The notes under the pieces were generated by a model. The model saw only the letters and a program-made list of their open reading frames with translations. It made no database searches and was not told the DNA's origin. Position numbers and translations under genes: made by a program. Below, in pieces: positions 15,157-63,344 of a DNA stretch of 64,000 bases (within the stretch, counting starts at the first letter, position 1; each line of letters starts with the position of its first letter). The stretch is taken from the NCBI GenBank assembly GCA_016932475.1, contig JAFGCU010000120.1, positions 4,562 through 68,561 of the forward strand. The letters are read 5' to 3'. This stretch comes from Anaerolineales bacterium. GTDB lineage: Bacteria; Chloroflexota; Anaerolineae; Anaerolineales; RBG-16-64-43.

Positions 15157-15186
15157 TTGACGCCCCCCGCCCTTTCCCGATATAAT
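15157..15186 (+). promoter_or_regulatory. Sigma70-like promoter candidate upstream of purL
   Basis: TTGACG (15157-15162), an 18-nt spacer, then TATAAT (15181-15186). It sits about 410 nt upstream of purL, so the repeats at 15295-15485 would be in the leader. Confidence 0.3.
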
Positions 15187-15294
15187 TCGCCAAGCGTATG
15201 GTTGGATCGTTATCCCGGCATAGTTGAACCCGAGACAAAAATAGACCTTGCCGGGATCGTCATCCCGACGCCTGCCCTCGCGCCCGCCCCGCAC

Positions 15295-15360
15295 CTGCCC
15301 TCGCGGAGCATCCCTGCTCGGGTTGGTTTTATGAGCAGGGATGCTTGCGAAGCGAGGGGA
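15295..15360 (+). repeat. Nested-hairpin intergenic repeat, family A copy 2
   Basis: Outer stem ccctcgc/gcgaggg (15298-15304 / 15352-15358). Inner 12-bp stem gcatccctgctc/gagcagggatgc (15308-15319 / 15333-15344). Confidence 0.85.
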
Positions 15361-15375
15361 GCGATGAGCATTGGA

Positions 15376-15485
15376 GCAATCCCAATGCGAATGCTTCGCG
15401 AACGGGGAAGCATCCATGCTCGATGTTGATTTATGAGCATGGATGGATGCGCCTGCCCTGCGTTTTTTGGCAGGGAAGCGGGGGT
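15376..15485 (+). repeat. ~110-nt three-hairpin element, copy 1 (homologous to 25643-25751)
   Basis: H1 is gcgaa/ttcgc, H2 is catccatgctc/gagcatggatg and H3 is ccctgc/gcaggg. It is collinear with the second copy, with compensatory changes in H2. Confidence 0.8.
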
Positions 15486-15594
15486 GTTCTTGGCCGGGGC
15501 CGGCGCGAGCGCCGCTCAACGCACCTTCCATTAAAGAGCCAATCCACATCCTGGCCGCTTCCGCTCTGCGGGCGGCTTCCTGGGAGACCCTATC

Positions 15595-25579: not shown

Positions 25580-25586
25580 ACGGAAT

Positions 25587-25628
25587 CCTCCCCCGTTTAT
25601 CGATCTTGTTCTTGATAAACGGGGGAGG
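25587..25628 (+). repeat. 15-bp perfect-stem hairpin right after the MutS-related gene
   Basis: cctcccccgtttatc (25587-25601) pairs with gataaacgggggagg (25614-25628). It is followed by ggaggacaaaggaggggg. Confidence 0.85.
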
Positions 25629-25642
25629 ACAAAGGAGGGGGT

Positions 25643-25751
25643 GCAAATCCAATGCGAATGATTCGTGAGCGGGGCAGCAAAACTGCTCGCCTTTGAACGT
25701 TGAGCAGTTTTGATTGCGCCTGCCCTGCGCCTTATGCAGGGAAGCGAGGGG
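25643..25751 (+). repeat. ~110-nt three-hairpin element, copy 2
   Basis: gcaaatccaatgcgaatgattcgtgagcgggg cagcaaaactgctc ... gagcagttttg ... cctgccctgcgccttatgcagggaagcgagggg. Collinear with 15376-15485. Confidence 0.8.
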
Positions 25752-25792
25752 ACAGAGGAGGGGGCCACCTCACCCTGCCCTTCTCCCAGCTC

Positions 25793-25857
25793 TTGCCCTT
25801 GCGGAGTGCGCTGGCTCGTTCTACTCTTGGAGCCTGCGCGATCACGGAGCAAGGGGA
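25793..25857 (+). repeat. Nested-hairpin intergenic repeat, family A copy 3
   Basis: Outer stem cccttgc/gcaaggg (25796-25802 / 25849-25855), a compensated variant of ccctcgc/gcgaggg. Inner stem gcgctggctc/gagcctgcgc. Confidence 0.8.
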
Positions 25858-26152
25858 TGCCGGGAGAGGGTTCTAAATCCCTTTTCCTCGCGCCCGCCTC
25901 CAGCGCGTGCCTTTTTGTGAGACAAAGGATCGATTTGTTCCGGGTATCTGCATAATCACAGAACAAGCAGAAGCTTGATGAGGGACGGACATTTCAAACT
26001 CTCCCTTCTCCCAGCATCAGCTGGGAGAAGGTGGCCGAAGGCCGGATGAGGGGGGTATGGTACAATTCCCAAAAGCGGCGGAAAAAACTCCGCCCCCCCG
26101 GTTCTCCGTTTTTATACATTCCATTTGGAATTGATCGGGTTGCATAATTATT

Positions 26153-26184
26153 AACGGCCTGTCTCCAGGCCGGTTCGTTTTTTT
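26153..26184 (+). terminator. Orphan rho-independent terminator in the long gap upstream of purD
   Basis: aacggcct gtctcc aggccggtt (8 bp plus 1 bulge) followed by cgttttttt. No annotated plus-strand gene ends nearby. Confidence 0.5.
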
Positions 26185-26564
26185 CATATAAAGGTCGTGC
26201 CGAATGGCGCAGCTACAAATGGAAAACCTCTCCAGGATCTTCCACGTGCCCGCCGGAGCTACCGGCCTCGCGGGATCGCCGGACGCGCGGATGTCATTCC
26301 CGCTCCCGGCGCAAAACACAGCGGAGCCTCCGCGCTGCCCGCTCCACCGATCTGCGCGCGCGGCGAAAGGGATAATCACCCGGGTCCTGCCGTCCGCCTT
26401 CTTCGCCTACTATCCAACCTTGCAGCTAGTGGATAAAATGACCATGCTGCCCCTGTTAAATTTTTCCGCCCCGCGGACCGGCCTGGCGGCGGCCGCACGT
26501 GTCCGGAGGCGTTGCCGGGGCTCCCGCCGGGGAACCGGATCCTGATCCTTCAAAGGAGCGCGAC

Positions 26565-63104: not shown

Positions 63105-63231
63105 CTTGCGCTCGTCATGCCGGCGCGTTCTAAGCCGGCATCCAGGACATGCGCTCGTCTTACCGGTGCGTACTAAGCCGGCATCCAGGACATGCGCTCG
63201 TCATGCCGGCGCGTACTAAGCCGGCATCCAG
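63103..63231 (+). repeat. 3 x 43-bp tandem repeat, each unit a hairpin (atgccggc N9 gccggcat)
   Basis: Units at 63103-63145, 63146-63188 and 63189-63231, delimited by hand. The first unit overlaps the TGA stop of the GT2 fusion. Confidence 0.9.
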
Positions 63232-63344
63232 GATCATTCCTGAAGAATCCTTTCCCCCATGCCCTGGATCCCGGCCAGGATCTCGCCGGGATGACGGACT
63301 TCTTCGCATCCGCCGCCGGACCCCCGCCCGCGTTATAATTAAAC

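Follow-up and report, generated by a model that had tools for sequence, protein, structure and literature searches.

The DNA considered here (the window) is a stretch of 64,000 nucleotides from one contig of a metagenome-assembled genome (MAG) of an Anaerolineales bacterium. It carries the purine genes purL and purD, each of which is preceded by one copy of a non-coding element of about 110 nt. The two copies, at positions 15376-15485 and 25643-25751, are collinear and fold into three hairpins each, as borne out by re-reading of the sequence and by RNA folding. Copy 1 ends 110 nt before purL, and copy 2 lies about 750 nt before purD. The central hairpin has an 11-bp stem and a 13-nt loop; its stem reads CATCCATGCTC/GAGCATGGATG in copy 1 and CAAAACTGCTC/GAGCAGTTTTG in copy 2, and every one of the four differences is compensated on the opposite arm. 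The flanking hairpins, GCGAA-3 nt-TTCGC(T) and CCCTGC-loop-GCAGGG, are both present in both copies, but the former, which had also been counted as a maintained structure, is conserved in sequence and does not covary. The RNA fold of copy 1 reaches -49.5 kcal/mol (z = -3.8), which none of 200 shuffles matched, and that of copy 2 reaches -42.0 kcal/mol (z = -2.0), which 7 of 200 shuffles did. An initial annotation had offered three identities for the element, namely a cis-regulatory leader RNA, a small RNA, or a structured DNA element resembling repetitive extragenic palindromes (REP) or miniature transposable elements with inverted repeats (MITE). It is the third of these that has held: the element is very probably a non-coding module that belongs to a family of nested palindromic DNA repeats, and not an RNA of the purine genes.

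The element had been described as present twice, yet the genome holds about 50-100 hairpins of its central type. This genome, denoted G000, comprises 3.65 Mb in 129 contigs with 61% G+C; other G numbers denote related genomes and C denotes a contig. The relatives recovered through purL were all Anaerolineales or Chloroflexota MAGs. Scanning for GCTC-N-GAGC hairpins with extended stems revealed the 11-bp/13-nt-loop design dozens of times in G000. The major stem, CATCCCGGCTC/GAGCCGGGATG, has 27 exact copies, and there are more than 15 further stems, each compensated, for example CATCCCTG, CATTCCGG, CATCACCA, and CAAAACCG. An nhmmer search with both window copies gave about 70 significant matches, partial or full, in which the unit reaches 5' to a fourth small hairpin, ATTGG-7-CCAAT. 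The left edge first drawn for the element cuts through this hairpin, which belongs to the same module and is 5'-truncated in copy 2, where its 5' half is missing. Searching for full-length copies with blastn-short returned only partial matches, and the element is thus modular. Moreover, many copies stand at contig ends, so that the repeat evidently breaks the assembly.

The outer layer of the family is a 32-nt hairpin, (T)CGTCAT-nCCGGC-GTGnTCnwr-GCCGGn-ATCCA(G), represented in G000 by 346 well-formed units and about 1,300 half-sites. Its loop measures 9 nt in 219 of the 346 well-formed units and is longer in nested ones; about a fifth of the well-formed units hold one to four nested hairpin modules. 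The module L2, a CCTG-CCCTCGC-GAA-GCGAGGG hairpin, sits in the loop of about 50 outer units, between G and TG, and may occur as the only insert (e.g. C23:17413). The tip of L2 can in turn be occupied by L3, the central 11-bp hairpin of the two window copies, whose T-rich loop, GyTTCTGGTTCAT, is strand-asymmetric. L3 can be preceded by L2b, an optional second CCTG-type unit with the hairpins H0 (ATTGG/CCAAT) and H1 (GCGAA/TTCGC), and followed by H3, an optional minimal CCTG-type hairpin which recurs in other host palindromes (C58:31447 and C62:2178). The 110-nt element consists of the 3' part of L2b, L3, and H3. L2 has a single polarity in its hosts, which are of the SRM/CGTC-REP type discussed below, with 40 forward and no reverse cases. 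Both window copies are decayed, the outer 3' arm of copy 1 being degenerate and copy 2 being devoid of host arms. A strict 'GCG^' target for the CCTG-type units was considered and discarded; GCG precedes 126 of 669 CCTGCCCY sites against a background of 3.7%, but most of these sites are background and attC has GAG, leaving the figure suggestive only. Taken together, this is a nested, modular, structure-preserving, and indel-dynamic DNA repeat family on an SRM/CGTC-REP host. The literature searched contained nothing specific on nested modules in REP or attC hairpins or on palindromic repeats of Anaerolineae.

The compensation seen between the two window copies holds throughout the family. In a covariance model of H0-H1-L3 with 21 pairs, 17 copies from G000 have 92% of their cells paired and show two-sided change in 10 of the 21 pairs, and 64 distinct copies from ten other genomes, in an alignment fitted to the model, have 95% paired and two-sided change in 16 of 21; in neither set was any of 500 shuffles as high. 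Slid controls on the latter alignment gave 34-48% pairing. Among the relatives' copies, two-sided change affects 10 of the 11 L3 pairs and all five H0 pairs; H1, with only one of five, says little on covariation. The three variable pairs of the basal (un-nested) outer hairpin likewise have matching counts on the two arms, e.g. T/C 169:62 against A/G 168:60. Thus, the proposal that the fold rather than the sequence is preserved applies family-wide, and the additional copies are compensated like the first two.

Basal units are intergenic in 92% of cases, as judged with gene calls from a rough open reading frame (ORF) model made in this analysis. They are enriched between convergent genes (30% versus 14%) and rare between divergent genes (4% versus 14%), and have no orientation preference (30:30 and 21:31). 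In co-directional spacers, L3-bearing elements run in the same sense as the genes in 18 cases and opposite in 14. A replication-strand bias of the hairpins was examined in a 3-contig assembly (G006) and dismissed, as both orientations are interleaved there as inverted dimers. No T-tract was found after the hairpins. The copies gave no Rfam match at gathering thresholds, and at E = 1 only chance microRNA or ctRNA matches appeared (microRNA E about 0.1-0.8). Across the family, neither the consistent sense orientation nor the described RNA family expected of a pur leader RNA is found. The initial annotation had itself named scattering in random orientation, as in ordinary REP DNA, as the finding that would speak against a regulatory RNA, and by that measure its two RNA readings fail. 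The nature of the mismatches points the same way. In an RNA copied from one strand, G-U pairs should be tolerated and A-C pairs should not; single G-T and A-C mismatches number 33 and 23 in L3 and 20 and 25 in the basal stem. These similar frequencies, together with the random orientation, favour a constraint on the stems at the level of DNA rather than RNA.

The covariance model, with which BLAST results agree on distribution, finds at least about 100 matches each in G000, G004, G006, and G007, 53-66 in G002 and G005, 10 in G001, and none in G003. Four genomes of a second genus have 13-26 matches each, and 29 other genomes of the order have none; the family is thus found in two genera of one Anaerolineales family. 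Stem subfamilies are common to several species and differ in copy number. For instance, the stem CATCCCGGCTC has 27 copies in G000, 17 in G004, 9 in G007, 8 in G006, 2 in G005, 1 in G002, and none in G001, G003, or the other genus. The corresponding counts for CAAAACTGCTC are 2 in G000, 3 in G004, 7 in G007, 12 in G006, 4 in G005, none in G002, G001, and G003, and 1 in the other genus. Since each subfamily occurs in several species, the two window stems represent old lineages, and the four swaps are the marks of two old stem subfamilies rather than of a local compensatory event between two copies.

Comparison of orthologous sites revealed that the elements come and go between species. In relatives whose PurL is 86-91% identical in amino acids, the purL leader passes from GATATAAT directly into CCGGCGCG (read as TTGACG-N-GATATAAT followed by CCGGCGCGAAC) with no insert, and the site is empty in the relatives' stretches L001 and L003. 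G007 has only a 72-nt degenerate hairpin at this place and misses the 243-nt composite element that holds copy 1, G002 has a different palindrome, and the window has both the 72-nt insert and the composite. The repeat DNA of the window starts at the base right after the -10 hexamer of the purL promoter. Copy 1 lies just after this -10 box and so is probably part of the 5' leader of purL; the relatives do without it. In the purD spacer, the orthologous spot of G004 has the same L3 (CAAAACTG) and H3 behind another 5' part, and G007 and G002 lack L3 and H3. A cis-regulatory leader or riboswitch would be conserved in orthologous leaders, and this element is not. In a wider test, 15 other nested elements were compared with five congeners, and two sites were read through at sequence level. 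The site C2:26266 is filled in G000, G004, and G006, and has only a 43-59-nt spacer in G007, G002, and G005; moreover, its element has a 63-nt L2b (H0/H1) module between CGCG and GCATCCC in G004 only, not in G000 or G006. The site C7:17063 is filled in G000 and G004, is reduced to 3 nt in G006 and 5 nt in G005, and holds a different hairpin remnant in G007 and a repeat of another family in G002. A basal hairpin neighbouring it has the 9-nt loop in G004 and a nested hairpin in G000. At several other compared sites, the spacer length between matched flanks varies among congeners. Whole elements as well as single modules have thus been gained or lost between species. Additionally, the purL promoter site (15187) and G000:C7:17000-17200 differ among congeners in the repeat family that they hold; G000, G004, and G007 have the SRM type there, G002 has other palindromes, and in some species the sites are empty. 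They look like insertion hot spots beside promoters or stop codons.

The host hairpin itself resembles two described kinds of repeat. Ssn proteins are 94-aa GIY-YIG nucleases framed by hairpins which they cut only as single-stranded DNA (ssDNA); the Neisseria form of the hairpin, NTS, reads CGTCATTCCCGCGMAVGCGGGAATCYRG, and a degenerate pattern, HGTCWYN(0-2)YYVSBRHN(0-5)WNVSBRGN(0-2)RNCYNB, defines the wider class, the Ssn-related motifs (SRM; Nat Commun 2025, PMC11893778). This pattern has 225 matches in G000 against 18 in a reversed-sequence control, and four in the window. Like NTS and SRM, the host hairpin has a CGTCAT tag, an 8-bp stem starting with AT, and an ATCCAG tail, and relatives' versions fit the Neisseria NTS consensus except for the last base (CGTCATTCCCGCGAAGGCGGGAATCCAC). 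In a position table of 231 units, in which GTCA and CC served as search anchors and only the other positions are independent, C stands at -1 in 207, stem position 2 is T in 169 and C in 62, and CC is followed by A in 211. Furthermore, G000 has a 97-aa single-domain GIY-YIG gene (C101:23501-23791, 67 bits on PF01541) framed by three plus-strand CGTCAT-type SRM hairpins upstream and two minus-strand ones downstream (G000:C101:23360-23866). Both features of an SRM-Ssn system, a pattern enriched over chance and a GIY-YIG gene of less than 150 aa flanked by hairpins on both sides, are therefore found for the host hairpin, not for the 110-nt insert. Homologues in 12 relatives (51-76% identity) are framed alike, as are genes for proteins 67-70% identical in a Desulfobulbus and a Planctomycetota genome. 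The protein belongs to a very large family of about 95 aa with 65-70% identity across phyla, and in the PDB it has only weak UPF0213 matches (E = 1e-3). A second small GIY-YIG gene, G000:C5:39730-40230, is framed by another hairpin family, GTCATTCCGAGGGG...CCCCGAGGAATCG, and to judge from these two loci, G000 seems to harbour two pairs of an Ssn-like nuclease and its repeat. From its motif and gene neighbourhood, the host hairpin fits the class of hairpins cut as ssDNA by Ssn nucleases. The differences are that the loop here is 9 nt (GTGnTCnwr) and not 3-5 nt, that the host phylum is Chloroflexota and the nuclease a predicted one, that the 110-nt element is an insert and not the SRM itself, and that nested modules are not described for NTS and SRM (PMC11893778). 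The loop of NTS is dispensable in its identity and can be extended (PMC11893778), which fits loops carrying inserts.

The second likeness is to the superfamily of CGTC-tagged REPs, to which the Neisseria dRS3/NIME mosaics and the Rickettsia RPEs belong and whose defining marks are a CGTC tag, a stem of 8-9 bp with AT at its start, a CCA tail, and the lack of an associated transposase (Di Nocera et al. 2013, PMC3733652). Tag, stem, and tail are all present in the host hairpin, which also shares with this superfamily the high copy number, the extragenic position, the inverted dimers about 65 nt apart, and the absence of a flanking transposase. Its loop of 9 nt in most well-formed units departs from the 4-5 nt given for CGTC repeats, whereas relatives of other genera have 4-nt loops. 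CGTC repeats were not reported in Chloroflexi, for which only GTAG repeats were listed (PMC3733652). Moreover, in the mosaics described there, units adjoin each other or REPs lie within other palindromes, and no modules occupy the loop of a REP. The proteobacterial REP/REPIN-RAYT (REP-associated tyrosine transposase) repeats and BIME mosaics are similar in being short palindromic intergenic repeats with compensated stems and mosaic clusters, depleted from divergent promoter regions, but there is no GTAG tag here and the RAYT-like genes are framed by a different palindrome, AGACCTGTCAGGTCT.

The features of the window that belong to or adjoin the two copies are collected in Table 1.

Table 1. 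Repeat modules and neighbouring features in the window, with positions counted from its first letter
Feature	Position	Strand	Basis or remark
purL promoter, sigma-70-like, TTGACG-18-TATAAT	15157..15186	+	11/12 matches; conserved in relatives, there directly before CCGGCGCG
First insert, degenerate SRM-like hairpin CGTTATCCCGGC-28 nt-GCCGGGATC and short leader	15187..15258	+	in G000 and G007, not in other relatives
Composite nested element holding copy 1 (243 nt)	15259..15501	+	fold -124 kcal/mol, z = -4.1; not at this site in G007
Composite, outer 5' arm GTCATCCCGAC	15259-15269	+	sequence reading
Composite, two CCTGCCCTCGCG arms	15271-15282, 15294-15305	+	sequence reading
Composite, first inner hairpin	15306-15346	+	sequence reading
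Composite, GCGAAGCGAGGGG	15347-15359	+	sequence reading
L2b module: AGCGATGAGC, H0, H1, then GAACGGGGAA	15360..15409	+	alignment of copies
H0, ATTGG-AGCAATC-CCAAT	15370-15386	+	5/5 pairs covary
H1, GCGAA-TGC-TTCGC	15387-15399	+	sequence-conserved
L3 central hairpin, copy 1: G-CATCCATGCTC, 13-nt loop, GAGCATGGATG, GATGCG	15410..15451	+	10/11 pairs covary over 64 relatives' copies
H3 third hairpin, CCTGCCCTGCG-TTTTTTG-GCAGGG, then closing arm AAGCGGGGGTG	15452..15486	+	minimal CCTG-type unit lodged after GCG
Composite, outer 3' arm GGCCGGGGCC, degenerate	15492-15501	+	sequence reading
Hairpin of a different repeat family, CCTCCCCCGTTT...AAACGGGGGAGG, tail GGACAAAGGAGGGGG	25586..25641	+	same family frames DUF559 gene C44:57632
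Copy 2, 5'-truncated module without outer host arms	25643..25751	+	sequence and fold
Copy 2, H1	25654-25666	+	part of copy 2
Copy 2, L3 stem CAAAACTGCTC / GAGCAGTTTTG	25677-25712	+	part of copy 2
Copy 2, H3	25719-25741	+	part of copy 2
Copy 2, AAGCGAGGGG	25742-25751	+	part of copy 2
Nested hairpin of the same L2 + L3 design; outer arms CCCTTGC/GCAAGGG, inner stem TGCGCTGGCTC/GAGCCTGCGCG	25793..25857	+	neighbour of copy 2
Four basal SRM/CGTC-REP hairpins, un-nested host form: three tandem on +, one on -	63113..63296	.	published SRM pattern matches

The hairpin just upstream of copy 2 stands 3' of a gene of 573 aa and looks like a terminator, but it is a member of the repeat family found on both sides of a DUF559 gene. 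With the 15-nt tail of this hairpin (GGACARAGGAGGGGG) recurring at 25750-25764, copy 2 lies between the two halves of a direct repeat of 15 nt. Another stretch in the purD region, 26040-26200 on the 5' side of the gene, is kept in G007 and G002 while the surrounding repeats vary. It holds a -10-like TGGTACAAT, GCGGCGGAAAAAACTCCGCC, and, at 26155-26182, a terminator-like hairpin CGGCCTGTCTCCAGGCCG with a T-run. This stretch has no Rfam match; its candidate identities are a small RNA, a leader, and a tiny ORF.

The same modules also occur inside the recombination sites of an integron. The region G006:C3:20001-60000 is an integron cassette array with small low-G+C ORFs, all on one strand and each followed by an attC site; at least ten such sites (GCCCAAC...GTTGGGC) are present, with R'' in GCCCAAC-CCGCGGTTG and R' in CAACCGCG-AACC-GTTGGGC. 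A plain site is 130 nt long, and sites with one to four L2, L3, or L2b modules measure 200-530 nt. Within them, the modules always have bottom-strand polarity and form a side branch in the 5' arm after GCGGTTGAG (GAG), not the native tip. No intI gene was found in the G006 assembly, which is 77% complete, and an NCBIfam scan of the ORFs adjoining the array gave no matches. In G000, a bona fide integron integrase is encoded at C120:7408-9152 (TIGR02249, 448 bits, cut-off 265); after the gene come GTTGGGCG (at about 8899), DNA of low G+C, and the end of the contig, which breaks in GCGCCCA, and the assembly probably lacks the cassette array of this genome. The attC boxes (R'' RYYYAAC, R' GTTRRRY, and paired L boxes) are absent from the window copies and have four weak matches in all of G000.

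Several genes were considered as the source of an enzyme that might move the modules. RAYT as a mobiliser was set aside, as only five weak matches were obtained and CGTCAT units frame no RAYT-like locus among those scanned in G000 and its relatives; the one RAYT-like gene read through, at G000:C90:962-4312, scores 57 bits on NF047646, which is below the cut-off, and has AGACCTGTCAGGTCT palindromes on its flanks. The repeat is thus not of the REP-RAYT (REPIN) kind, having neither a RAYT gene flanked by it among the loci scanned nor the GTAG tag. DUF559 nucleases were likewise rejected, since the repeats around all five genes belong to other families, and the G000 assembly has no IS110-type transposase. 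For a MITE, the signs are mixed; the outer arms are inverted repeats but covary between copies, there is no duplication at the purL site, the 15-nt direct repeat flanking copy 2 is the tail of another repeat family, and neither the RAYT-like loci nor the IS110 search of the assembly yielded an autonomous partner. Insertion sequences of the IS1111/IS110 family, which occupy REP and attC sites, and group IIC-attC introns target folded hairpins. The present modules resemble them in that REP-type hairpins and attC sites are occupied with one polarity and no obvious target duplication, but differ in being non-coding units of 20-65 nt which are themselves hairpins and have no intron features.

The stems are probably kept because the modules exist or move as folded ssDNA. 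Propagated or retained as hairpins, they would keep a stem change only if the partner base also changes or is converted within the palindrome, and the purL and purD copies would be incidental insertions. The idea of a purine-specific cis-regulatory leader or small RNA common to purL and purD draws on the position of both copies upstream of pur genes and on their strand. It is highly improbable, as the relatives' purL leaders are without the insert, G007 has only the 72-nt remnant, the purD spacers of G007 and G002 lack the element, and at least about 100 other copies stand beside unrelated genes, with no riboswitch or other Rfam match; the proposed link to the purine genes is not borne out. 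A broader RNA reading would treat the modules as exapted, co-transcribed RNA structures that generally stabilise mRNA, provide processing sites, or act as attenuators, roles that have been proposed for REP, ERIC, and Correia elements, with the stem compensation reflecting selection on RNA. The strong folds of the copies and the composite, the intergenic location, the probable leader position of copy 1 downstream of the purL -10 box, and the T-rich, strand-asymmetric loop agree with it. However, the L3-bearing and basal units show no orientation bias, G-T and A-C mismatches are about equal, T-tracts and Rfam matches (even at E = 1) are missing, and orthologous genes of congeners do without the elements; this reading is unlikely.

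An integron origin would have the inner modules begin as the variable tip of the genus's attC, be shuffled by the integron integrase, and reach the SRM hosts secondarily. This is suggested by the ten or more G006 attC sites with one to four of the same modules in constant bottom-strand polarity and by the G000 integrase beside a contig end that breaks in GCGCCCA. It is nevertheless very unlikely; the window copies and most G000 copies are without AAC/GTT boxes and lie in CGTCAT hairpins, the module in attC is a side branch of the 5' arm and not the native tip, and the attC comparison covers a single array. A further proposal is that the CCTG-type units and their cargo hairpins form a distinct class of tiny non-autonomous mobile modules, inserting with one polarity and without duplication into ssDNA-folded hairpins, with SRM and attC as two unrelated hosts in the same genus; this is conceivable, though doubtful. 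A module of a nested palindromic DNA repeat family is the preferred account of the 110-nt element, and the following points weigh against it. The presence/absence patterns fit precise deletion as well as insertion, and no clean target-site duplication was seen. The fixed polarity fits descent from one composite ancestor as well as repeated strand-specific insertion. No enzyme or mechanism moving the inner modules was identified, the RAYT-like, DUF559, and second GIY-YIG genes being framed by other families. Some copies may have a role at the level of RNA. Additionally, fitting the relatives' alignment to the model inflates its pairing counts, and the gene context statistics depend on the rough ORF model.

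For annotation, a false lead for a new purine riboregulator is removed, as the stems that covary beside purL and purD belong to repeat DNA; perfect compensatory changes between two copies alone do not indicate an RNA. Moreover, such repeats account for many contig breaks in these MAGs. The Ssn/SRM (CGTC-REP) system is placed in Chloroflexota, where the loop of the hairpin has come to receive further modules at three to four levels of nesting. If the modules have repeatedly been inserted into SRM and attC sites, this points to a process recognising folded ssDNA, and it would affect both Ssn cleavage and integron cassette recombination, which depend on ssDNA folding. If they are indeed tiny mobile modules, there would be a structure-targeted route of insertion.

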